DNA from: Escherichia coli
Lineage (GTDB): Bacteria; Pseudomonadota; Gammaproteobacteria; Enterobacterales; Enterobacteriaceae
Strand: one strand, 5' to 3'
NCBI RefSeq assembly: GCF_022846255.1
Contig: NZ_AP025682.1
Length of the DNA: 64,000 nucleotides
Positions within the stretch are counted from its first letter, which is position 1. The number at the start of each line of letters is the position of its first letter. Positions 10,876 to 64,000 of the stretch are shown here, in pieces. The notes under the pieces were generated by a model. It saw only the letters and a list, made by a program, of their open reading frames with translations. It searched no databases and was not told where the DNA came from. The translations under genes and the position numbers were made by a program.

Positions 10876-11559
10876 ATGACACAACAAGGGGATGCTGTAG
10901 CTGGGGAGCTGGCGACAGAAAAAGTGGGTGTTAAAGGGTATCTGGCCTTTTTTCTCACGATTATCTTTTTTTCCGGAGTTTTTTCCGGGACAGACAGTTG
11001 GTGGCGCGTTTTTGACTTTTCCGTTCTGAACGGATCGTTTGGGCAACTGCCTGGTGCGAATGGCGCTACCACCTCGTTTCGCGGCGCAGGTGGCACAGGA
11101 GCTAAAGATGGCTTTCTCTTCGCACTGGAACTGGCTCCGTCAGTGATTCTCTCTCTGGGAATTATCTCGATTACCGATGGTCTTGGCGGATTGCGCGCCG
11201 CGCAGCAGTTAATGACGCCCGTGCTAAAACCGTTGTTGGGCATTCCAGGCATCTGTTCACTGGCGCTGATTGCTAACCTGCAAAACACCGATGCCGCCGC
11301 AGGTATGACCAAAGAACTGGCGCAGGAAGGGGAAATTACCGAACGTGATAAAGTGATATTCGCCGCCTATCAAACCAGCGGTAGCGCCATCATCACCAAC
11401 TACTTCTCTTCCGGCGTCGCGGTGTTTGCCTTTCTGGGCACGTCCGTAATCGTACCTTTAGCCGTCATCCTGGTGTTTAAATTTGTCGGAGCCAACATTT
11501 TGCGCGTCTGGCTTAACTTCGAAGAACGTCGCAACCCAACGCAAGGAGCGCAAGCATGA
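10876..11559 (+). CDS. yjiH: Nucleoside-recognition-domain membrane protein
   Basis: Membrane protein; its stop overlaps the yjiG start (ATGA at 11556). Confidence 0.85.
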   Translation: MTQQGDAVAGELATEKVGVKGYLAFFLTIIFFSGVFSGTDSWWRVFDFSVLNGSFGQLPGANGATTSFRGAGGTGAKDGFLFALELAPSVILSLGIISITDGLGGLRAAQQLMTPVLKPLLGIPGICSLALIANLQNTDAAAGMTKELAQEGEITERDKVIFAAYQTSGSAIITNYFSSGVAVFAFLGTSVIVPLAVILVFKFVGANILRVWLNFEERRNPTQGAQA

Positions 11560-12017
11560 CAACTCAGGTCCGCAAAAACGTCATGGATATGTTTATTGAT
11601 GGCGCGCGCCGTGGCTTTACTATCGCTACCACCAACCTGCTGCCAAACGTGGTGATGGCCTTTGTCATCATCCAGGCGCTGAAAATTACTGGCCTGCTCG
11701 ACTGGGTGGGACATATCTGTGAACCCGTAATGGCGCTGTGGGGATTGCCCGGTGAAGCGGCAACCGTCCTTTTAGCCGCATTGATGAGCATGGGCGGCGC
11801 AGTCGGTGTTGCCGCCAGTCTGGCAACCGCTGGCGCATTAACCGGCCACGATGTCACCGTTTTACTGCCCGCGATGTATTTAATGGGCAACCCGGTGCAA
11901 AATGTCGGTCGCTGCCTGGGAACAGCCGAAGTGAATGCCAAATATTACCCGCATATCATTACGGTCTGCGTGATTAACGCATTGCTGTCGATCTGGGTTA
12001 TGCAGCTTATTGTTTAA
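11556..12017 (+). CDS. yjiG: SpmB-like inner membrane protein
   Basis: 153-aa membrane protein coupled to yjiH. Confidence 0.85.
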   Translation: MTTQVRKNVMDMFIDGARRGFTIATTNLLPNVVMAFVIIQALKITGLLDWVGHICEPVMALWGLPGEAATVLLAALMSMGGAVGVAASLATAGALTGHDVTVLLPAMYLMGNPVQNVGRCLGTAEVNAKYYPHIITVCVINALLSIWVMQLIV

Positions 12018-12029
12018 CAAGGAGTTACC

Positions 12030-13202
12030 ATGATTGATTATTCCGCAGCCGGTTTTACCCTGCTGCAGGGAGCGCATTTGTATGCGCCGGAAGATCGGGG
12101 AATTTGCGATGTCCTCATCGCTAACGGCAAAATTATTGCCGTTGCCAGCAACATCCCTTCTGACATCGTACCGGACTGCACGGTTGTCGATCTCAGCGGG
12201 CAGATCCTCTGCCCAGGTTTTATTGATCAACACGTCCATTTGATTGGTGGTGGCGGCGAAGCAGGTCCCACGACACGCACGCCAGAAGTGGCGTTAAGTC
12301 GTCTGACGGAAGCGGGCGTCACGTCAGTGGTTGGTCTGCTGGGCACCGACTCTATCTCTCGCCACCCGGAATCCCTGCTCGCCAAGACCCGTGCGCTCAA
12401 TGAAGAAGGCATCAGCGCCTGGATGCTGACCGGCGCTTATCATGTCCCTTCCCGCACTATTACGGGTTCCGTGGAAAAAGACGTGGCGATTATCGATCGC
12501 GTGATTGGTGTGAAATGCGCCATCTCTGATCACCGTTCTGCCGCACCGGACGTTTATCACCTGGCTAATATGGCGGCGGAATCCCGCGTTGGCGGTTTGC
12601 TTGGCGGTAAACCTGGCGTCACCGTGTTCCACATGGGCGACAGTAAAAAGGCGTTACAGCCTGTCTATGACCTGCTGGAAAACTGCGATGTGCCGATCAG
12701 CAAGCTGCTGCCGACCCACGTTAACCGCAACGTACCGTTGTTTGAGCAGGCGCTGGAGTTCGCGCGCAAAGGCGGCACTATCGACATCACCAGCAGCATT
12801 GACGAACCGGTCGCCCCTGCCGAAGGTATTGCCCGCGCCGTTCAGGCGGGTATTCCGCTGGCACGCGTCACCCTCAGCTCTGACGGCAACGGTAGCCAGC
12901 CGTTCTTCGATGACGAAGGGAATTTAACCCATATCGGTGTTGCAGGTTTTGAAACGTTGCTGGAAACCGTGCAGGTGCTGGTCAAAGACTATGATTTCAG
13001 TATCAGCGATGCCCTGCGCCCGCTCACCAGTAGCGTAGCCGGTTTCCTTAACCTGAGCGGGAAAGGCGAAATTCTGCCAGGCAATGACGCAGACTTACTG
13101 GTCATGACGCCAGAATTGCGCATTGAGCAGGTATACGCTCGCGGCAAACTGATGGTCAAAGACGGCAAAGCCTGCGTGAAAGGAACGTTTGAAACGGCTT
13201 AA
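12030..13202 (+). CDS. iadA: Isoaspartyl dipeptidase
   Basis: 390-aa amidohydrolase-fold protein with an N-terminal metal-binding HxH motif (FIDQHVHLIGGG). Confidence 0.9.
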   Translation: MIDYSAAGFTLLQGAHLYAPEDRGICDVLIANGKIIAVASNIPSDIVPDCTVVDLSGQILCPGFIDQHVHLIGGGGEAGPTTRTPEVALSRLTEAGVTSVVGLLGTDSISRHPESLLAKTRALNEEGISAWMLTGAYHVPSRTITGSVEKDVAIIDRVIGVKCAISDHRSAAPDVYHLANMAAESRVGGLLGGKPGVTVFHMGDSKKALQPVYDLLENCDVPISKLLPTHVNRNVPLFEQALEFARKGGTIDITSSIDEPVAPAEGIARAVQAGIPLARVTLSSDGNGSQPFFDDEGNLTHIGVAGFETLLETVQVLVKDYDFSISDALRPLTSSVAGFLNLSGKGEILPGNDADLLVMTPELRIEQVYARGKLMVKDGKACVKGTFETA

Positions 13203-46312: not shown

Positions 46313-46431
46313 ACTGCTTTCCTTTCAAAAAACTATTTCTAAATCGACATGGGCAGTCGTTCTGTACACTTTGTTTTGTCAACGAGTTTGACTGCCAACA
46401 CTGCACAGTTTTCCCCCAAAAGATGAAACAT

Positions 46432-46745
46432 TTGGGGCCATTTTGACTCATAGAGGAAAGCATCGCGCACAAACTTTTTCAGTTTATTTGTTGGCTTAAT
46501 GTTCTATGGTTATCTTTATTTGCAGTTTTTTATATTGCATGAGGTGGTTTTTGGAGAGAAGAATGAGGAAGTTGCGTCGAGCTACAGAAACGTTAGCTTT
46601 ACATATAGCGGAGGTGATGTGAAATTAATTTACAAGAGAAATAATTTACATATCAAACAGTTAGATGATTTTTGTCGTTTTTTAATATTTTTATGCTTGA
46701 GAAAAAATACGTAACTTATTTATGATATAGACAGTTTGGCCCCAA
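46432..46745. promoter_or_regulatory. fimS: fimS invertible element (314 bp) flanked by 9-bp inverted repeats TTGGGGCCA, carrying the fimA promoter; orientation as assembled appears phase-OFF
   Basis: IRs ttggggcca at 46432-46440 and tggccccaa at 46737-46745. The best sigma-70 promoter inside (TTGAGA 46697-46702, 18-bp spacer, TATGAT 46721-46726) is on the + strand and reads toward fimE, away from fimA. Confidence 0.8.
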
Positions 46746-46792
46746 TTGTCTTGTATTTATTTATTTTTTAAGTTTATTATCAATAAGTTAAA

Positions 46793-52821: not shown

Positions 52822-52874
52822 GCGTTCATTAATTTGATTTATTCGCATCCATCAACGCTTTTAACTGCTCCGGC

Positions 52875-53794: not shown

Positions 53795-54445
53795 ATGAAT
53801 ATCCGTCAATCATTACATGACCGAATCTATGCAGAATACCCTCAACAGGCTAAAGATATATTACTGTATTTCCCCACTTATGAAATTATGCCATCGACCA
53901 TAAAAATGGTTATGATTAATGAGGTGGTAGCTATAACACCGCAAGAAGATTTTTATACACCAGAGTCTGGTTATTTTACGACTGTCGCCCGACAGTTAGC
54001 GCTGGCTGGATTATCGGCAAGTAGTGGCGAAGTCTTACTCAACCATGGTATCTACCTGACCTCCGCACTGAAACTACCTAAAACACAGATCACAGCCACA
54101 CCCGCGGAGATCATTCTCTGGTCACCTATTGTAGAATGGGAGCTCGAACTCTTTGCCAATATAAAAGTTATTTTCGTTGGCGGCGATATCGCGCGAAAAT
54201 GCCTTAACATCATCGCGAAAAAGCAAACACGTAAACATGCCATCCCTTCAACTCCGACGTACAAACTGATGAATAGCGAATTAGTCTGGAAAGGAATAAG
54301 CATACTTCCTGGATATATTCTTACCGGAAAAAACCTGCTCATTGAAAAGTCAAAAATCGAAATGAATGTCGAACAATTAAGAAAAGGAATTGCGATTTAT
54401 CGCAATAGTAACAGTAACCATACGAATAATTCAGTTCATGAATAA
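53795..54445 (+). CDS. Hypothetical protein (216 aa) in an AT-rich islet; possible distant uracil-DNA-glycosylase-like fold
   Basis: ATG at 53795; clean 216-codon ORF in a markedly AT-rich segment between the IS4 remnant and the helicase operon. The order of conserved-looking blocks is reminiscent of UDG-superfamily topology but without a canonical GEGPG motif. Confidence 0.5.
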   Translation: MNIRQSLHDRIYAEYPQQAKDILLYFPTYEIMPSTIKMVMINEVVAITPQEDFYTPESGYFTTVARQLALAGLSASSGEVLLNHGIYLTSALKLPKTQITATPAEIILWSPIVEWELELFANIKVIFVGGDIARKCLNIIAKKQTRKHAIPSTPTYKLMNSELVWKGISILPGYILTGKNLLIEKSKIEMNVEQLRKGIAIYRNSNSNHTNNSVHE

Positions 54446-54958
54446 GAGATGAATCATTAATAACAAGAAATCACTGACAAACCACCTGTAAAAGGTCAAT
54501 CATTTTAGTTCAATTTCCTTTGTCATGATTATATTTTTATCGTCCTGACGATACTATTAACAATTACAATATTTATACCCTCCCCTGAACAAACAGAAAA
54601 GAACTCATACATTCGTTTATAATTCTGGTAATCCTGGCATCATACGTTTAAAATTTAAGGTGTTTGTTTTATAATCATGATTCCAAAGACTATTGGTCAC
54701 CAGAAAATGCCAGCCTTTTCGTGCCAGCTATATTTGTCCAGTGTGTTACCCCATCCAAAAATCATCCACATCCTGATGTTACGTTAGATATAGAGAAAAC
54801 AGGTTGTACTGTGCAATATGCTAACCGCATAAGCGAATATAATTTCTAAGCTGATATTGTCTGGCTGTTGGGAGCTAAACAATATAAATATCGCCAGTTG
54901 CCAGAACGGTTATATAGACCAGGAGCGTTTCGGCTCCTGGTCTGTTTCGGACATATTA

Positions 54959-57073
54959 TCAATCAGCCACTAATAGCGGACTAGGGATACCAGATGATGA
55001 AACAAACAGCCCTTTTACGGCACGGGTTGCAGCCACATGCAGTAACGCGCGCTCATTAAATAATGCATCACGCTGTTCAACGGGATCATCGGATGCTAAT
55101 GCTTTTATTTCCGGCACAACGCCTTCGTTAATCCCCACCAGGAACACATACTGGAACTCAAGCCCTTTAATACGGTGCATCGTTGCAACTCGCACGCCTG
55201 GGCGTTCATCGCTGTCACCGCTATCATTGCCTAAATTAAATGTCTCAATTCCGGCGTCATTGAGTGCTGATGCGTAGCGGTCGCAAGCATGTTTAGTACG
55301 CGCAGTAATGCAGATATCCTGAGAACGAACCTGACTCGCCAGCAATGCCTGAATTTGCTTGACGAGTGTTGCAGCCTCTTCTTTGAAATCTGCCGCATGC
55401 GTAATCATGGGCTTTTCCCCGTGCAGTAATGACAAATAATCATTACTGGTATCCGCTTCGCCATCGAGGTTATCAACCTTCACACCAGTTAACAGCCCAA
55501 CAGCAAATTGACGCGTCTCTTCTGTGGTCCGATAGTTAATCTTCAATTTTTTACTGCGACGACCACGGACGTTAATACCACACTGACCAAGAACGACCTT
55601 ATTGCGATAAATACGCTGATGCCCATCCCCGACAATAAACAGATCGTTGGGCGACTCGGGAACCAGGCTGCGAATAAGAGTAAATGCCGGGGCACCGATA
55701 TCTTGAGCTTCATCGACGACAATACTGCTATAAGGTAGTTGGACCTGCTTTTCTTTAAACAGAACAATAGCCTCATGCATGGCATCGCCCATTTCGCGCA
55801 GTTTGGCACGCGCCATTTGTGCTCTGAATTCTTCGAAAACTGGCCAGATTTTCGCCCGTTGAATACGGGATAACGCTGTACCACGTCCAACCCGGCTGAC
55901 TTTGAGGTATTCCTCCCGGGTGTAAACCGCATTTGGCTGGACAACGCGTTGCCACTCTTCAGCATAGAAATTGTCAGGTAGCCCCAGTTCGGCAGGTGCC
56001 TGCTGCAAGGCATAGTTCCAGCATTTACGTCGCCCTTCATCGCTGTCGTATACCACGCGGAAATCATAACCGTGGCGTTTTAGTTGGTCGCTCATCCAGG
56101 CATCAATGTTAACGACGTCAATACGCGCCATCTCTTCTCGCGTACACAACCGCTGGAGATTAGCGCGAATATCTGCCGCCAGGTTACGCGTAAAGGTCGT
56201 GAAAAGTACCTTCTTACCGGGTTTATCTGCCAGACGCTGAGATAACCACCGCGCACGGTGCATTGCAACAACCGTTTTCCCTGTACCTGCACCGCCCAGT
56301 ACTCGTACCGGACCATTAGCGGGCGACTCCACCAGTTTTCGCTGGCTCGGATGCAGAAATACACGCCATTTTTCTAAAGGCGCATTAAGCATCTGCAACA
56401 GCTCCTGTTCATTTTCAACGACATGGAAGCGACGTTTACTTCGTTCAATCGCCTCCATAAAGTCGTTGGTATCAACAGGCTCGTCACGATGATCGTTAAA
56501 CTCTTCCAGCACTTCCTGGTAATCCAGCCCTTCTGCCAGCCAATGCAGGGGTTCCCAGGCTTCTGCTGGCATTATGCTTTCAAGTTGATTAAGCCCGGCT
56601 TCATCGGTAAGCGCCATCACCTGATCAATAAAGACAGGCGGCACACCCAGGGCCAGAATCTGTTCCGCGCTGTAAGCTGCGAAGAGTTTCGGTTTATCTA
56701 GCACCGTTTCCGCCGCCGGTTTGATATAGCTAATATCAATAACCTGAATTGCGCCGGTAACCGGGTGAATTGAACAATCATGCCGCCGCGCCCAGTCGTA
56801 TGCTTCGTCGTGTTTATCCACCCACATCAGCATATACAGGGCACCCTGTTCAGGTTTCAGAACAATGCCGCGATAAGTTTGATCGATTCGCACCGAATGG
56901 ACATTTTTACTGCGCGCATCGTGGATCTTTTCATAGTTAAGTCCATTACTGGTCGGGTCCTGACGGAATTTGGAGATGAATTCCTGCACCTTTTTTTGCT
57001 GTGCTTTTGGGATCCGCGCGAATGCGCCCAGAAAACCATCAGAAAGTGCCACCTTGGGCGTTTGCACCGTCAT
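54959..57073 (-). CDS. UvrD/Rep-family (SF1) helicase, 704 aa, with an uncharacterised ~230-aa N-terminal domain
   Basis: Walker A GGAGTGKT (aa 260-267), motif II IVVDEAQDIG, motif III-like VGDGHQRIYR, C-terminal TMHRIKGLEFQYVFLVG. Its start ATG overlaps the stop of the 2113-aa gene by 4 nt (57070-57073). Confidence 0.8.
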   Translation of the reverse strand: MTVQTPKVALSDGFLGAFARIPKAQQKKVQEFISKFRQDPTSNGLNYEKIHDARSKNVHSVRIDQTYRGIVLKPEQGALYMLMWVDKHDEAYDWARRHDCSIHPVTGAIQVIDISYIKPAAETVLDKPKLFAAYSAEQILALGVPPVFIDQVMALTDEAGLNQLESIMPAEAWEPLHWLAEGLDYQEVLEEFNDHRDEPVDTNDFMEAIERSKRRFHVVENEQELLQMLNAPLEKWRVFLHPSQRKLVESPANGPVRVLGGAGTGKTVVAMHRARWLSQRLADKPGKKVLFTTFTRNLAADIRANLQRLCTREEMARIDVVNIDAWMSDQLKRHGYDFRVVYDSDEGRRKCWNYALQQAPAELGLPDNFYAEEWQRVVQPNAVYTREEYLKVSRVGRGTALSRIQRAKIWPVFEEFRAQMARAKLREMGDAMHEAIVLFKEKQVQLPYSSIVVDEAQDIGAPAFTLIRSLVPESPNDLFIVGDGHQRIYRNKVVLGQCGINVRGRRSKKLKINYRTTEETRQFAVGLLTGVKVDNLDGEADTSNDYLSLLHGEKPMITHAADFKEEAATLVKQIQALLASQVRSQDICITARTKHACDRYASALNDAGIETFNLGNDSGDSDERPGVRVATMHRIKGLEFQYVFLVGINEGVVPEIKALASDDPVEQRDALFNERALLHVAATRAVKGLFVSSSGIPSPLLVAD

Positions 57074-60000
57074 TTGTCACCTCCGGACAGATGTTGCAAT
57101 GTATTTTCGTCAATTGGCCCGAATGCTACGTGCCAACCCCTGGTTGTGAATAATGGAATAAATTCTTGATTATCAATAATCAATGCCCATTTTTGTGATG
57201 GCCAGGCGAGATCGGCTTCCGCAATAATTTCCCCCTCATCATTTTGCAATTCGTAGCCGAGAGTCGGCGCAGAGAGAGAATGAGACTGAAGCAACGCGAT
57301 CTCTTCAGCGCTTAATAAGCCAAACTCAATAATCTCAGCCCAACTCTCATCAGTCTCTGGTACTGCCTCTGGCGTTGCCGAAACTTTAGTGTCAACGCTT
57401 TCCTGCGGTAAATGCACGGCTTTACGGCTGGTAAAGGTTATATCCGGCAGGAACTGTAACAGGTTTACCAGTCGCCAGAAGCCATTGAGTCCCGCTTCAT
57501 AACCGTCATCCTGCGTATAGCGATCGTCAAAACAGATATGCAAACGCAGCCAGCTGCGCATTTGTGCGACACTGGTCGTCGGTTTAATGGCTTGTTGTGG
57601 CAACACCGAAGCCAGCTCAATAAATTGCTGCGATGAGTTACAGCTATCGAGTAAACCACCAAAGACAAACGGTTCGTCTGGCAAAAGCTCTGCTAGCCGC
57701 CAGGCTGGCGCGTTTTCCTGCATTTCATAGGCATACTTTTGTTTCGTTCCCGCGTCCTGTGACTTCTTCACATCCAACCACACCCAGGCATGTGCAGCAG
57801 CCATTTTCTGCCATAACTGCGTTCTTCCTCCCGGATCGGCGAGATAATCCAGCAGCAGTGCAAAACTGTTGCGTTCCCGGAACGACGCTTCAAGGGCCGC
57901 AAAGTTGGTATCGTGAAACAGGTTATAAAACTTAGGCTGTTTCATATCCGGGTTATGCCCAAGCCCCAGGACATCCTGAACATGTTTAAGCCCAGGCTCT
58001 TTGAGATCGGCCCACGTGACTGTCCACACCCAGAAATTATCGCTATCCCGAATCGCCTGGCGTTTTTGCACATCCTCTGCGACGCTATTTTTGTGAAACG
58101 CAAAGCCATCAAGGAAAATAGCTACCGGTTTAATGGCATCAGACTGCATAAGCGGATATAGCACGTAATCCGGGCGACAAGGGATCCCCACCGCCTCTTT
58201 AGCGCCTAAATCCACCTGAGCTTTAAGATGCCAGCTCATCATCGGTTCGCTGCGGGTGTTAATAATCCACCCAGCGCCCTGATGCGCGTAACTGCGACTG
58301 ACAATCAGGTTTTTATTTTCTTGCAGGCAGCTAATAAACCGTTTTTCCAGCTCACTGCCCATCATGGCTTCGAGGGAAATGTTTTTGATGGAATCAATTA
58401 CCCGTATCGAATCTCTTGCCTGCAAAATTTTCGCCAGCAAGAGACGCGCCTGATCGCGGGAGACATACTTCATGCGCCCACGGTCACGGTAAGCGTAAAC
58501 GCAACGATAACAACCATCTTTATGCGTATCATGGTTGCAACTGCATTCCACTATCGCCTGATAGGCCAGTTCAAGTAATTTCAGCAAATTGTCGGGAGTG
58601 CGCATCAGCTCTTTAAGAGAACCAGTTCCCCCCGGGACGGTATCGTAAATCACCAGATACTGCCGCCAGGATTCGCCTTCATTTTCCGGCTCGCGGTACA
58701 CAACGCCTTTCAGGTGATCGACATTCCCCTTGAAGTAATGTTTAAGACCTAGCTGGATCGCCGCCCCAAGAGAAGCCTCCACGACACGGTCATTACTGTA
58801 ACTGCTTACCGGGAGCAGAATACGCAACGCTTCTGACTCCAGCTGGCGATAGAGATAGAGATAATCTTCGAACTTCGCCTTTTCGGGTTCCGTGCGATAT
58901 TTGCAGCTCAAATCATGACGGGGTTCATGATCGCGAGGACGCTGTACCATGCCGCACCCGAGGCAAACTTTAAACCCGGTTCGCTTCTTCGCTTCTCCGG
59001 CAATCATCAACTCATTGGCATCATCCGCCATTTTGCCGAAGTTGATATCCCGCAGGGTGACTTTGCTTAAAAATTCAAAACCAAACGGAACTTCGCCTTC
59101 CTCAATCGCGTATGCCGCCGATACATCTTCTTTTTCGAAACTAACCAATAGCTGACGCTGGAAGAAAGCAGGTTCACGGCTGTCGCTCTCGTCGCTGATC
59201 TGGCTATCACGTGCGCTGGCGCGGGCATACACCTGGCGAAGTTTCAGCAGCGTGGTTTTTTGTCCGGCGTCGGCCCACCCCGGTGTGCCACATTTCGGGC
59301 AATATTTATGCTGGTCGCCCGTCTGGTCGATATTTTCGCTGTAGTTACAGTGGCTACAGATACGCCAGTTCTCCGGCTCAGAGACCTTCAGGTCTATCTG
59401 CTCAATTTCAACTTTATGCCCACCGGCATAGAAATTATTCAGCGGAGCCAGCTCAGCCAGCGCCGTTGATGCCGGGCGTTCATATTCGAAAGTGGTGTTT
59501 TGATATTCACGTGCTTCCCCGCCTTCTTTACGCCGCCAGAGCACAGAACGTAACGTAATACCGGCTTCCGGGAAGGCGTAGTTAGGCAGCAGACCTTCAT
59601 CCGTGAGGAAATTCAGCGTCTGCTTATTGTTGATTTGATTGACCAGCGCCATCAGCGCCTGCCGTTCTGAAGTTAACTCGCGCATATCGCTGTCAAAGTT
59701 TTGATCGCGCGGCGCGTTCTCCAGCTTATCGATACTGCGCTTGAGTTTATCGATGCGTGAACGCAGAGATTTGCGATCTTCCACCAGCAGTTTTAACGCC
59801 TCTTCGATACGCTGCACCAGAGAGCGTTGTCCTGGCGCGCCCTGAAGATAAGACAACAACTGTTGGCGAGTTTCTGCGGCAAGATCGGGGAAGATCGCCG
59901 TAAATTGTGCAGCAATCTCCGCATGATGCTGTTCGATATATCTCAGTAAGTTATACGGAAAACCCGATTTACGCCCGAACTCCAGCTCATCCAGCATCTG

Positions 60001-63000
60001 TTTGACGTTTTTACAGATAGCGGATTCTGGTACACCGGTTTTCACCCAGTTATCCATACAAAAAGCTGCCAGCTGGCGTTCGAGAATAGCCGTTGCATTG
60101 AGGAAGACGCCAGGAGCCTGCACCTGGCCCTGCATCATCTCCAGTGGTTCTTCAAAGAAAAACTGATCGTGCGGGTTCCCTTCTGCCACGGTAATGTTTA
60201 ACGCGTTACCATCTTTACGACCGGCGCGACCAATACGCTGCAAGTAGTTGGCCTGAGCAGGTGGGACAGAACAGAGTAAAACGGTGGAAAGATCCCCAAC
60301 GTCGATACCCATCTCCAGCGTCGGTGTTGCCGACAACAGGTTGATATTCCACGGTTGGTTGCCGCGGTAGAACGATTTTTCGGTGGCTTCGCGATCTTCA
60401 CGGCTAAGCAGCCCCGTGTGTTCTGCGCCCTGCACGCGCGCGATGTCCATGTTCTCCCAACGCCAGGTCGCCGTATTGTCGACTTCCTGGTAACGACCTT
60501 CACAACGTAAAGAGAGACAAGGCGCATTACGCCACTGCCACCCTTGATCGGCCGGAGCCCGGACAACCTCACGGCAACATGAGCAATTAAGCTGAACGAC
60601 GTCACGGCTCACCACCAGCGCCGAAGGCACCAGTCCCCAGGCTTCACGCCCTTTGGTGTCAAAATCTTTTACTACTCCGGCTATTTTCAACGCCGTAAAC
60701 AGGCGTCGTAACACCGTTTCCGCAACGCTACTGATAAACAGATTATTGCCGTTACTCAGCGTGCGATTGATCCAATGCTGATACCAACTGGGGTTAGACT
60801 TCGCGCCAATCAGGCGATGGAAACCATTAATTTTTTCAAACGACGCGTAAGCCGGTTTACGCGTTTTCGGACCGATAGAAGGCATATAGCGCGAGGTACG
60901 CTCTTTTTGCGTCATCATAAAGGTCGTGCCATCACGGCGATAACTTTCGAACGCCGGATGCATAACGGCCCCGGCCTGGCGTTGATACCAGATAACCCCC
61001 AGCGCCAGGTGCGCTACCTGCTCGACGCTCACACCGGACATCTCATCACCCAGCTCTTCACAAAGCTGTTGATGCAGGGCGGTAATTGCCGGATTAAAGC
61101 GATCTTTATCCACTCCAGCAACGGCATAACCGGTGGCTTCCAGCGTACGTCCGATACGCGCGCGCAGGGTGAATTCGCTGTACACCTCCCAGTCGAGGCG
61201 CAGGGAAACCAGCTCCGGCAGATCGGAGTTCTCCGCCAGTTTGCCTTCATTTTTCAGTGTCTGATAATCATTCAGCCACTGCATATTTGGTGCGATGAAG
61301 TTCGCTGCAAAATGAGCATCGTCCGGTGAACGTTCACGCGTTTGTTGGCAAACACGCGCCGCGAACGCATCCAGCGGTAATGTCTCTTTTTCGCCAAGAA
61401 CACTGGCGATTTGCCCACGAATCATCAGCGGCCAGGTTCGGGCAGTAAAAAAGCTGGCACGATGCGCGGCGTCTTGTACCGAGTCAGAAAACGTAATCAG
61501 CTTTTTATGTTCGTTGAACTGGCTGCCATAAAGCTGGTGAATCATCACCGCCGACAGACTGGCAGCCCGTGACCCCAGAATCGAAATCCCCTGTTTGCTG
61601 TTGCAGTACGGGCATTCATTAGCAAACTCCAGCTCGTCCTTACGCTCTTTGAGCATATCTGGGATCAGTACCTGCAACAGCTCTGTATGACCACAATGTC
61701 CACACTGGACGCTGGACTGTCGGTTCAGTTTCAGGCAGGTAGGGCACAGTTTCTGGTGTGCGCCACTGACCGCTTTTTCGTTGTTATCCGGGAAAGCAAG
61801 GACGATGGAGCGCCCTTTTTCAAAGAACTGGCGATAAATGCCGTCGAGGTCTGTTTCCAGCTGAACGCTTTGCCCATGACGCAGGCTGGCCCAGCCGGTT
61901 GCGTGGCAGTCACGGCAGTGGATAACCGGCAAATAGTGTTCGCGATCTTCCACCGCCACATCATCGGCAAACACCAGTCTCGGTGTTTTCGCCACGCTGG
62001 CGACCAGACGACGCATCTCACGAAGCCACAACTGGGAGCGCAGTTGCACAAACGGCAGCACCGGGCGCGCTTTCTTCGCCTGGAGACGTTTTTGCCGATC
62101 GTGGTCCGTTTCCGGTACTTCGAGACGTGCCTGCGCGATCAGCGCCAGAATGCTTTGCAGCACGCGTCGGGCATGGTCGGCGCTTTCTGCCAGCATGACC
62201 TGGAGATTTTCCAGACACTCTCGTTCAGAGAGGATCCCGCCTTGCAGATCATGGAGTAAGACATGCATCACGCTGTGGCGGCGTAACAGTGACCCCAGCG
62301 CAATACGCTTTTCACGCCCGTCGTCGCTCTCCAGATCGTCCGGGAGTTGCAAGTCGCTGTCGGGGAACCACAAAGGGATTTGTCCGTTGAGATACGCCAC
62401 CGGGGTAGCGTAACTCTGCGGGTCCAGGGCCGAAGCGACCTCCGGCCCCGGATACTGACTGTACGCAATGGCGTAATCCTGCAAGTACTCCGCTGCCGTG
62501 TAGCGATCTTCGCGAATAACGGCGTCATCGGTAAACGGCTGGTCAAAGATTGTTTTTGCGTAATCGAGCAGTTGCCCCAGTTCGTCGCCGACGGTCGCTG
62601 ATGTCCCGACGCAGGCGAATCGTTGGTTATCTACACCTATGTGATGCTTCAGACGTCGCACCAGACAGGCCAGATCCGACCCTTGCGCGCCATCAAACGT
62701 ATGCAATTCATCCACGACCAGGTAACGCAATGAACCGGGCTGGTTGTAACGCCAGAGCGGCTGATCGCCAGGGCGCATCAGCAGGTAGTCGAGCATTTTG
62801 TAGTTGGTCAACAGGATGTCCGGCGGGCTTTCGCGCAGCGTGTGCTTACAGGTAATGACCTTTTCTGCCGACATTTTTTTGCTGGGTTCGATTTCGCTGT
62901 CGCCGACAAACAGGCCGACGGTCACCTTGCCATGCAGTTGTGGATCGCTGGCGATGGTTTTGGCGAAACGGCTGGCCTGATCGGTTGCCAGGGCGTTCAT

Positions 63001-63411
63001 CGGGTAGATGATAATCGCTTTAACCCCGGCTTGTGACGCGCCCGCGCAGTGGTTGAGCAGCGGGAACATAAAACATTCTGTTTTACCGGAGCCGGTACCG
63101 GTAGCGACCAGTGTCGGCTGTGGCGCGTCGCTTCCCAGACGCTGAAATGCCCGGGCCTGATGCGCGTGCGGCGGGAACGGCAGCGTCAGATTAGGGAAGA
63201 AATTCAGCGGTAAGTCACTTTTACAAAACGGCAACTGGGCGGAAAGGTATGGTCCTTTCAGCAGCGTTTCAGGCTGGGCCAGAAATTGCTCCAGCATTGA
63301 GACATTATCGTTATTCTCGCCGTTAAACAGCGGGCTGTTTAGCGGGAACGCCGCCCGTAAAAAGGCGGCAACGCTGTCGGCGACCTGCCGACTGACAACG
63401 GATGGCAGCAT
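57070..63411 (-). CDS. Giant (2113 aa) DEAH-box SF2 helicase with Zn-ribbon insertions, DUF1998-like Cys cluster and a Vsr/DUF559-like endonuclease motif; DruE-like (Druantia) candidate
   Basis: Walker A VATGTGSGKT (nt 63079-63105), motif II VVDELH (62701-62718), motif VI QRIGRAGR (60217-60240), several CxxC pairs, CSCNHDTHKDGCYRC cluster (about 58501-58545), and VAIFLDGFAFHK...RQAIRD...VWTVTW (about 58090-58140). Confidence 0.8.
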   Translation of the reverse strand: MLPSVVSRQVADSVAAFLRAAFPLNSPLFNGENNDNVSMLEQFLAQPETLLKGPYLSAQLPFCKSDLPLNFFPNLTLPFPPHAHQARAFQRLGSDAPQPTLVATGTGSGKTECFMFPLLNHCAGASQAGVKAIIIYPMNALATDQASRFAKTIASDPQLHGKVTVGLFVGDSEIEPSKKMSAEKVITCKHTLRESPPDILLTNYKMLDYLLMRPGDQPLWRYNQPGSLRYLVVDELHTFDGAQGSDLACLVRRLKHHIGVDNQRFACVGTSATVGDELGQLLDYAKTIFDQPFTDDAVIREDRYTAAEYLQDYAIAYSQYPGPEVASALDPQSYATPVAYLNGQIPLWFPDSDLQLPDDLESDDGREKRIALGSLLRRHSVMHVLLHDLQGGILSERECLENLQVMLAESADHARRVLQSILALIAQARLEVPETDHDRQKRLQAKKARPVLPFVQLRSQLWLREMRRLVASVAKTPRLVFADDVAVEDREHYLPVIHCRDCHATGWASLRHGQSVQLETDLDGIYRQFFEKGRSIVLAFPDNNEKAVSGAHQKLCPTCLKLNRQSSVQCGHCGHTELLQVLIPDMLKERKDELEFANECPYCNSKQGISILGSRAASLSAVMIHQLYGSQFNEHKKLITFSDSVQDAAHRASFFTARTWPLMIRGQIASVLGEKETLPLDAFAARVCQQTRERSPDDAHFAANFIAPNMQWLNDYQTLKNEGKLAENSDLPELVSLRLDWEVYSEFTLRARIGRTLEATGYAVAGVDKDRFNPAITALHQQLCEELGDEMSGVSVEQVAHLALGVIWYQRQAGAVMHPAFESYRRDGTTFMMTQKERTSRYMPSIGPKTRKPAYASFEKINGFHRLIGAKSNPSWYQHWINRTLSNGNNLFISSVAETVLRRLFTALKIAGVVKDFDTKGREAWGLVPSALVVSRDVVQLNCSCCREVVRAPADQGWQWRNAPCLSLRCEGRYQEVDNTATWRWENMDIARVQGAEHTGLLSREDREATEKSFYRGNQPWNINLLSATPTLEMGIDVGDLSTVLLCSVPPAQANYLQRIGRAGRKDGNALNITVAEGNPHDQFFFEEPLEMMQGQVQAPGVFLNATAILERQLAAFCMDNWVKTGVPESAICKNVKQMLDELEFGRKSGFPYNLLRYIEQHHAEIAAQFTAIFPDLAAETRQQLLSYLQGAPGQRSLVQRIEEALKLLVEDRKSLRSRIDKLKRSIDKLENAPRDQNFDSDMRELTSERQALMALVNQINNKQTLNFLTDEGLLPNYAFPEAGITLRSVLWRRKEGGEAREYQNTTFEYERPASTALAELAPLNNFYAGGHKVEIEQIDLKVSEPENWRICSHCNYSENIDQTGDQHKYCPKCGTPGWADAGQKTTLLKLRQVYARASARDSQISDESDSREPAFFQRQLLVSFEKEDVSAAYAIEEGEVPFGFEFLSKVTLRDINFGKMADDANELMIAGEAKKRTGFKVCLGCGMVQRPRDHEPRHDLSCKYRTEPEKAKFEDYLYLYRQLESEALRILLPVSSYSNDRVVEASLGAAIQLGLKHYFKGNVDHLKGVVYREPENEGESWRQYLVIYDTVPGGTGSLKELMRTPDNLLKLLELAYQAIVECSCNHDTHKDGCYRCVYAYRDRGRMKYVSRDQARLLLAKILQARDSIRVIDSIKNISLEAMMGSELEKRFISCLQENKNLIVSRSYAHQGAGWIINTRSEPMMSWHLKAQVDLGAKEAVGIPCRPDYVLYPLMQSDAIKPVAIFLDGFAFHKNSVAEDVQKRQAIRDSDNFWVWTVTWADLKEPGLKHVQDVLGLGHNPDMKQPKFYNLFHDTNFAALEASFRERNSFALLLDYLADPGGRTQLWQKMAAAHAWVWLDVKKSQDAGTKQKYAYEMQENAPAWRLAELLPDEPFVFGGLLDSCNSSQQFIELASVLPQQAIKPTTSVAQMRSWLRLHICFDDRYTQDDGYEAGLNGFWRLVNLLQFLPDITFTSRKAVHLPQESVDTKVSATPEAVPETDESWAEIIEFGLLSAEEIALLQSHSLSAPTLGYELQNDEGEIIAEADLAWPSQKWALIIDNQEFIPLFTTRGWHVAFGPIDENTLQHLSGGDK

Positions 63412-64000
63412 CAGGCGCTCTCCTTATCTTGTGCAAAGAACGCCCAGGCCACTTTGTAGTCGTCCTCGCGATCTGGCTTGATAAACGGAGCCTGCCAAGT
63501 GACGGTACGGCGCTCGCCTTCGTCGCTGCGGGTATAGTCATCAAAGGTGACGCTGACGGTACCGGTTTGCAGATGTTTGACATCATCCCAACCGATGGCT
63601 TGATCGGTGCAGTCACCGCCGGTCCACTCTGGGCTATCGACGTTAAAGACAAAGCCGTTTTTCAGGTCAGCTTTACGCGCGGTGCGAGGCAAGCCAACGC
63701 CCACCAGCCCTTTGCTTGGGGTAAAGATAATGCGACCGTTTTGATCGTACCAGGTATCCGCTTCGTACTGGCGCATCACCGGGAACTGTACACGGTAAAT
63801 GGTAAGCAGTTCTTCGAGGGTTAACCCCAGCGCCTGCGCCACCAGTACGTCGATTTCCACCAGCGCCTGACGGCGACTGTAGTCAGAGCGTAAGGCGCAG
63901 TTACGCTGCCACTCTGGGGTCAGATTGGTGAAGAAATCTTGTGGGAGCTGCGGGAGATCGCGGCTCCAGCGTTGGGTATTGAAGTCTGGGGTGTAGCAGG
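63411..64000 (-). CDS. Hypothetical protein, C-terminal part only (gene continues beyond the window end); candidate partner of the giant helicase (DruH-like?)
   Basis: Reverse-strand frame is open from the window edge down to the TGA at 63411-63413 (about 196 codons visible). The stop overlaps the ATG of the 2113-aa gene by 1 nt (TGATG). No recognisable catalytic motif in the visible part. Confidence 0.6.
   Translation of the reverse strand, partial: CYTPDFNTQRWSRDLPQLPQDFFTNLTPEWQRNCALRSDYSRRQALVEIDVLVAQALGLTLEELLTIYRVQFPVMRQYEADTWYDQNGRIIFTPSKGLVGVGLPRTARKADLKNGFVFNVDSPEWTGGDCTDQAIGWDDVKHLQTGTVSVTFDDYTRSDEGERRTVTWQAPFIKPDREDDYKVAWAFFAQDKESA

Follow-up and report, generated by a model that had tools for sequence, protein, structure and literature searches.

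The anti-phage system ARMADA type II (armABCD) was named and tested in two preprints from 2025, by Bell et al. (bioRxiv 10.1101/2025.09.15.676423; PMC12458937) and by Li et al. (bioRxiv 10.1101/2025.09.22.677730), and it is the closest described counterpart of the gene analysed here, which lies at positions 54959..57073 (minus strand) of a 64,000-nucleotide stretch of Escherichia coli DNA (contig NZ_AP025682.1, assembly GCF_022846255.1), referred to below as the window. Bell et al. worked with a clone of the system from E. coli NCTC 12900 and with a deletion of it in ATCC 8739 (locus NC_010468.1), and found that many phages were blocked without cell death or metabolic shutdown and with no membrane permeabilisation (PMC12458937). 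Loss of any one of the four genes removed protection, the armD deletion being tested with HK022, and in ArmD the substitution K266A abolished defence against HK022 and D454N caused a partial loss (PMC12458937). The OI-172 island of EDL933 gave the same anti-phage result, with the deletion of armD being less severe than the deletions of armA, armB, and armC and resulting in lysis upon Bas18 infection (10.1101/2025.09.22.677730). Both preprints term ArmD GajB-like (PMC12458937; 10.1101/2025.09.22.677730), and Bell et al. describe the C-terminal nuclease of ArmC as Vsr-like (PMC12458937).

We find, with a probability of about 95%, that the gene in the window is armD, the terminal and translationally coupled gene of an ARMADA type II operon of the order armA-armB-armC-armD. 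It is an uninterrupted open reading frame (ORF) with an ATG start and 704 codons followed by the stop, and its product is identical to ArmD of ATCC 8739 (WP_000218176.1) in 701 of 704 residues (99.6%), the only substitutions relative to that protein being L125V, S580N, and E623A. Residues K266 and D454 of ArmD, as well as K110 and D234 of the neighbouring ArmC, fall at exactly the residue numbers that were mutated by Bell et al. (PMC12458937), and it is this agreement together with the near identity of the proteins that identifies the gene as armD. Nothing substantive sets the protein apart from the ATCC 8739 copy. On the DNA level, armD is a 100% match to the copy in E. coli LR-28 and a 98.6% match to the copies in O157:H7. 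Of 5426 complete E. coli genomes, 532 have its DNA, among them ATCC 8739, SMS-3-5, and many O157:H7, and in 525 of the 5426 a single match with 95-100% DNA identity spans at least 80% of the gene, so that this is not a chance ORF. The first-pass annotation, made by a model from the letters alone, was right about the ORF at 54959-57073 but had not stated its strand. It had also proposed a test of whether deletion of the gene abolishes a phenotype of the operon; this had already been done by others, and deletion does remove protection (PMC12458937; 10.1101/2025.09.22.677730). armD is already known as a named and experimentally validated component of a defence system, and for a genome scan this means that an odd-looking helicase resolves to a validated system and cannot be counted as a discovery.

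The same annotation had taken the gene to be coupled to the giant gene upstream, and the junction bears this out. The ATG of armD (57071-57073) overlaps the TGA stop of the 2113-amino-acid (aa) armC ORF (57070..63411, minus strand) in the sequence ATGA (57070-57073), and a Shine-Dalgarno ribosome-binding site for armD, GGAGGT, can be read directly within the armC coding sequence (57079..57084, minus strand). ArmC is a YprA/DruE-like helicase of the DEAH type that has an MZB (DUF1998) domain and, at its C terminus, a nuclease region. It contains the motifs GSGKT, with K110, and DELH, with D234, its Pfam domains are Helicase_C and MZB (8.5e-13), and it is a DruE paralogue with only partial matches to DruE3 in PADLOC (4.3e-104). 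The TGA of armB in turn shares one base with the ATG of armC. Only the 3' end of armB is present (63411..64000, minus strand) before the gene runs off the window, and this fragment of what is in full a 1644-aa PglX/DrmMI-like, type IIG-like DNA methyltransferase matches REase_MTase_IIG in PADLOC at 1.3e-39; full-length ArmB in LR-28 matches the same family at 1.2e-282 and DrmMI at 1.1e-56. armC, armD, and the 3' end of armB are the only parts of the operon that fall inside the window. In LR-28, where the operon is complete, a 952-aa helicase is followed by the 1644-aa methyltransferase, the 2113-aa giant, and the 704-aa ArmD. The 952-aa protein (ArmA) is DrmD/BrxHII-like (DrmD, 1.4e-99 in PADLOC). 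Taken together, the LR-28 annotation, the PADLOC matches, and the gene overlaps give the co-directional order of a BrxHII/DrmD-like helicase, a PglX/DrmMI-like methyltransferase, a YprA-like helicase, and a GajB-like helicase.

Several known systems share parts of this organisation. GajB is, like ArmD, an SF1A (superfamily 1A) UvrD-type ATPase subunit of a multi-protein anti-phage system, but ArmD has about 235 extra N-terminal residues (a RelE-like and a helical domain), and its partner is a YprA-type helicase-nuclease. We rejected Gabija as the identity of the operon, as there is no GajA-like gene in the operon or the island and the GajB matches are partial. DISARM class 1 (DrmD, DrmMI, DrmA, DrmB, DrmC) has a common operon logic with ARMADA, consisting of a Snf2 helicase, a large adenine methyltransferase, and a DUF1998/MZB helicase. 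In contrast to DISARM class 1, the last gene of ARMADA encodes a RelE-UvrD helicase and not the PLD nuclease DrmC, and a single giant protein, nearer to DruE than to DrmA, combines the helicase and MZB parts. With no PLD gene or DrmC present and the A and B parts fused in ArmC, DISARM class 1 was also rejected. The same is true for Druantia, which the match between ArmC and DruE3 (4e-104) might suggest; the true DruE is encoded next door and matches end to end with 2178 bits, and the partner genes differ.

The SF1A UvrD/GajB-like ATPase-helicase core of ArmD, as delimited with Pfam and PADLOC, comprises residues 236-704 (54962..56368, minus strand). Pfam finds UvrD-helicase at residues 241-490 (4.8e-23) and UvrD_C at residues 509-693 (4.6e-13), and the best PADLOC family matches are to GajB (2.9e-36, partial). 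The Q motif, WRVFLHPSQR, starts at residue 236 and is followed by the Walker A motif GGAGTGKT at residues 260-267 (56273..56296, minus strand), in which K266 is invariant in 82 of 82 homologues, and by the Walker B motif VDEAQD at residues 453-458 (55700..55717, minus strand), in which D454 and E455 are likewise invariant in all 82. About 230-240 residues precede the ATPase core, in agreement with the earlier estimate that some 230 residues lie ahead of Walker A.

Generic profiles of UvrD, Rep, PcrA, and HelD do match ArmD, and a paralogue of one of these housekeeping or repair helicases could have ended up beside defence genes by chance. However, all of these matches are far under the curated equivalog cut-offs of NCBIfam (99.7 versus 911 bits for PcrA, 92 versus 951 for Rep, 82 versus 1144 for UvrD, and 45 versus 419 for HelD). 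Moreover, no more than about 10% of the complete E. coli genomes carry armD, the gene is coupled to armC in translation and inherited together with it across phyla, and its deletion results in a loss of phage defence (PMC12458937; 10.1101/2025.09.22.677730). A housekeeping identity is contradicted by the scores, the occurrence, the linkage, and the deletion phenotype, and we give it practically no chance of being correct. The headline of the first-pass annotation, that the gene is likely the full-length counterpart of yjhR, a pseudogene in K-12, and that yjhR would then be a relic of a system of this kind, fares no better and is in our view extremely improbable. Both genes are found on that side of nanS which faces the island and are oriented towards nanS, and both are related to SF1-type helicases, but a BLASTP comparison of ArmD with YjhR (b4308) gave an E value of 0.49 and covered only an 18-mer resembling helicase motif V, a tblastn search with YjhR against the whole window gave no match, and the alignment between K-12 and the window (97.6%) runs through nanS and diverges just past the nanS stop, at window position 52824. 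YjhR instead fits MkoC of Mokosh type II (PADLOC PDLC03924, E value of 3.8e-139, profile positions 812-1135 of 1136) and contains a PLD-type HxK motif, whereas ArmD has no PLD domain. MkoC is not among the best 25 of the 36 PADLOC matches of ArmD, which are to GajB-type and other UvrD-type families. The BLASTP, tblastn, and MkoC profile results lead us to reject the link to yjhR.

yjhR is what an N-terminal truncation has left of a helicase-PLD gene of the MkoC type from Mokosh type II, namely its C-terminal ~325 residues (~30%). In K-12 it is located at 11016-12032 of the locus that we examined (L003). An intact yjhR/MkoC gene was found beside nanS in none of the other sampled E. coli, which carried either the fragment with this truncation or copies that an insertion sequence (IS1 or IS66) had interrupted. 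YjhR/MkoC, with its architecture of an Upf1-like helicase and PLD, has the nanS-side neighbourhood and the nature of an SF1 defence helicase in common with armD, with no detectable homology. The idea that yjhR is the relic of a defence gene survives, but the system it derives from is Mokosh II and not ARMADA. Besides correcting a tempting link, the Mokosh II origin of this relic shows that the defence genes carried at the nanS-leuX junction have differed between E. coli lineages.

The region in front of the helicase core had been described in the first-pass annotation as an uncharacterised domain, with a segment (SVRIDQTYRGIVL...LYMLMWVDKHDEAYDWA, which corresponds to ArmD residues 60-95) loosely reminiscent of RelE/ParE-fold toxins. 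The first description does not hold, as Bell et al. 2025 already call the N terminus of ArmD RelE-like (PMC12458937), while the hunch about the fold was confirmed by an AlphaFold2 model, by Foldseek, and by Pfam searches on relatives of ArmD. Pfam gave nothing significant for ArmD residues 1-240, including no RelE/ParE match, and the N-terminal region had no significant match among PDB chains, the best phmmer hit being a rubredoxin (E value of 2) and the profile search returning an archaeal RelE (1wmi, E value of 1.3). AlphaFold2 gave an unusable model of residues 1-249 from the single sequence, with a predicted local distance difference test score (pLDDT) of 43, but a model with a pLDDT of 92 and a predicted TM-score (pTM) of 0.86 when an alignment of 30 sequences was supplied. 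With Foldseek, the N-terminal model matched RelE-type toxins with TM-scores of 0.7-0.78 relative to the toxins. When Pfam was run on 30 relatives of ArmD, ParE_like was found in 4 of the 30 at E values of <=0.001 and a HigB-like toxin in one. Of these approaches, it is the fold comparison alone that is decisive for the RelE fold. As in ArmD of ARMADA II, the gene thus encodes a helicase of the UvrD family to whose N terminus a RelE-like domain is fused. This RelE/YoeB/YafQ-fold domain comprises residues 1-115 (56729..57073, minus strand), with E48, R62, R68, and H88 being near-invariant, and it is followed at residues 131-232 (56378..56683, minus strand) by a conserved domain made up of helices only, in which an LGVP motif is found near residue 143. 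No fold or family match was obtained for the helical domain (residues ~131-232) from its predicted structure with Foldseek.

Residues 1-249 of ArmD define a large family, with 2197 representatives (50%-identity clusters) at E values of <=0.001. Among the best 150 of these representatives, complete members are mostly about 700 aa long and aligned over the whole N-terminal region, and some JGI records tag fragments of the family as "RelE." In 82 full-length homologues, the RelE-like domain is conserved to the same degree as the motor, with a mean identity to ArmD of 45% compared to 40-46% for the helicase core, and the conservation of single residues reached 96-99% (E48 in 79, R62 in 80, R68 in 80, and H88 in 81 of the 82). 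A weak profile alignment (8.7 bits) places E48, R62, and R68 on E46, R59, and R65 of YoeB; H88 falls on YoeB H83 when aligned by eye, and near R81 in the RelE profile alignment. We regard this positional mapping onto YoeB as a weak lead only. Judging from the conservation, the RelE-like domain is under strong selection and has a plausible, apparently intact YoeB-type catalytic set. The RelE/YoeB/YafQ toxins have the RelE/ParE fold in common with the ArmD domain but are free-standing, whereas the ArmD domain is fused to a helicase in a 704-aa protein. Nor is there an adjoining antitoxin gene as for a RelE/ParE toxin, since armD has armC upstream and a hairpin, non-coding DNA, and a convergent 216-aa ORF downstream. 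The sequence similarity of the domain to these toxins and to the CARF-RelE fusion Cami1 is marginal, and ribonuclease (RNase) activity is a candidate function. Toxins of the RelE branch cleave mRNA in a ribosome-dependent manner, and those of the ParE branch poison gyrase.

UvrD acts after the nick in mismatch repair, and this provides a model, by analogy, for the step that ArmD may carry out. In the mechanism that we propose, methylation by ArmB would label host DNA as self, and the Snf2-type translocase ArmA, together with ArmC, which combines a YprA-type helicase with a Vsr-like nuclease, would engage phage DNA that lacks this label, with a nick or cut as the result. ArmD, with ATP, would load at the nick or at a junction between single- and double-stranded DNA and unwind in the 3'->5' direction, and this unwinding would widen the lesion and give single-stranded DNA to ArmC and host nucleases. 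A Vsr-type nick by ArmC followed by UvrD-type action of ArmD is what we infer from the mismatch repair analogy. The RelE-like domain would most likely add RNA cleavage or the binding of ribosomes or RNA, and it would be restrained from within its own polypeptide chain, with the neighbouring helical domain as a possible inhibitor.

A number of observations weigh against this mechanism. No Vsr domain was detected in ArmC, where Pfam gave only Helicase_C and MZB. The papers that we searched yielded no biochemical data on ArmD, and its helicase polarity, its DNA substrate, its contacts with ArmC, and any RNase activity are putative. Protection without membrane permeabilisation or metabolic shutdown (PMC12458937) is not easily reconciled with a RelE-type translation toxin that acts freely. 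Furthermore, since the effect of D454N is partial and the armD deletion in EDL933 is milder, ATP hydrolysis and unwinding may matter less than ATP binding or scaffolding.

Two alternatives can be considered. One that we find possible but would not favour is that ArmD works in the manner of GajB, as a sensor of DNA ends or junctions and not as a processive helicase, with nucleotide binding and hydrolysis allosterically activating the ArmC nuclease or depleting nucleotides. The best defence-family matches of ArmD are GajB profiles (2.9e-36), the protein is called GajB-like in both preprints, and the abolished defence in K266A (nucleotide binding) next to the weakened defence in D454N (hydrolysis) fits a switch better than a motor (PMC12458937). 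However, the operon has no GajA/OLD-family nuclease, the matches to GajB are partial and weaker than a member of the family would be expected to give, and GajB does not have the RelE-like and helical N-terminal domains. The other alternative, to which we attach a similarly tentative standing, is that ArmD, in a way comparable to the CARF-RelE fusion Cami1, is an endonuclease that cleaves mRNA on the ribosome and is gated by its helicase, and in which the sensing of phage DNA frees the RNase and causes a transient arrest of translation. The conserved residues of the RelE-like domain are what make this reading attractive, but the residue mapping rests on weak profile alignments (8.7 bits), and the H-D/R-x-x-Y pattern after the last strand is a general signature of the RelE/ParE family, so that the conservation could be structural. 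In addition, ARMADA II was reported to act directly and non-abortively, without metabolic shutdown (PMC12458937), and within a protein of 704 aa the domain might not gain access to the ribosomal A site. A more specific proposal, which we consider unlikely, is that the RelE-like domain is an active RNase silenced in cis, possibly with the helical domain as a built-in antitoxin, and released when the helicase core engages phage DNA, the RelE-helical-UvrD cassette being a portable sensor-effector module that is used also outside ARMADA (for instance, together with an AAA-ATPase/methyltransferase protein in low-GC bacteria, as in the loci L005 and L010 described below). If true, a cis-silenced RNase would mean that ARMADA II has a second arm, directed at RNA.

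The neighbourhoods of ArmD homologues beyond E. coli were examined in 11 metagenomic or genomic loci with 35-52% N-terminal identity. An ArmC homologue lies immediately upstream of the ArmD homologue in 7 of the 11 (L004, L006, L007, L012/L013, L014, L016, and L017), often with a stop/start overlap, and not in the remaining 4 (L005, L010, L015, and L011). L005 (247-5301) and L010 (3669-8290) are metagenomic contigs of low GC content (22-25%), and in both an ArmD-like RelE-helical-UvrD gene is followed by a gene for an ATPase_2/methyltransferase protein of ~800-860 aa. These partner proteins are 51% identical to each other, and the ArmD-like gene and its partner gene may be a separate two-gene module that uses the RelE-helical-UvrD cassette. 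In L015, non-coding DNA lies upstream of the ArmD-like gene, with only 115 bp available. In L011 (685-3615), a 221-aa ORF lies ahead of the ArmD-like gene, is similar only to the last ~100 residues of ArmC (residues 1993-2095, E value of 7.5e-8), and is found beside an IS1595 transposase; this ORF is either what remains of a decayed armC or a hint at the C-terminal domain of ArmC as the part with which ArmD partners. Two ArmD variants with additional C-terminal parts occur in otherwise typical ARMADA II operons, one of 1595 aa with RNA_pol_A_CTD and Sigma70_r4 (L007, 10001-14788) and one of 802 aa with LRR repeats, followed by a separate LRR protein (L016, 8001-10409).

The ARMADA operon is here part of a defence island that extends from leuX to nanS and also holds Druantia III and Zorya II. 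The window contains fimH-fimB and nanC-nanM-nanS and then the armD helicase gene, and in LR-28 the island from tRNA-Leu (leuX) to nanS consists of zorA2-zorB2-zorE, the genes for an STY4851/ECs_5259 protein and a 2104-aa helicase, and the ARMADA genes. The STY4851/ECs_5259 protein and the 2104-aa helicase are DruH and DruE of Druantia III, with PADLOC matches that run end to end (2536 and 2178 bits). The island in the window abuts nanS near leuX as it does in LR-28, whereas the ARMADA genes of ATCC 8739 have a different flank. The extreme C terminus of ArmC (residues 2021-2096, window positions 57121-57348) resembles the C-terminal part of ZorE (5.8e-9 in PADLOC; 3e-4 for ZorE in NCBIfam) and has no Pfam domain. 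As Zorya II is present in the same island, this resemblance means that neighbouring systems share a domain.

Downstream of armD, a GC-rich perfect hairpin with an 11-bp stem and a 6-nucleotide loop (54916..54943, minus strand) begins 16 nucleotides past the stop codon, with a folding energy of -22.3 kcal/mol in a 59-nucleotide context (sequence and ViennaRNA). It has no T-run and was not called in a scan for consensus terminators, and it is probably the 3' end of the operon or an RNA-stabilising element. Between nanS and the ARMADA operon there is a 216-aa ORF (53795-54445, plus strand) that is convergent with armD and for which the LR-28 annotation gives a hypothetical protein. It had no family match in NCBIfam or PADLOC and a weak match to the uracil-DNA-glycosylase superfamily (E value of 0.004). 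No 216-aa ORF of this kind is annotated in the flank of ATCC 8739, where an IS1 element is shown downstream of armD instead. Further away, a 322-bp segment between fimE and fimA (46428-46749), the fimS phase-switch site, is inverted relative to LR-28 with 96.9% identity between two collinear flanks, so that the type 1 fimbriae switch is seen in one state in the window and in the opposite state in LR-28.

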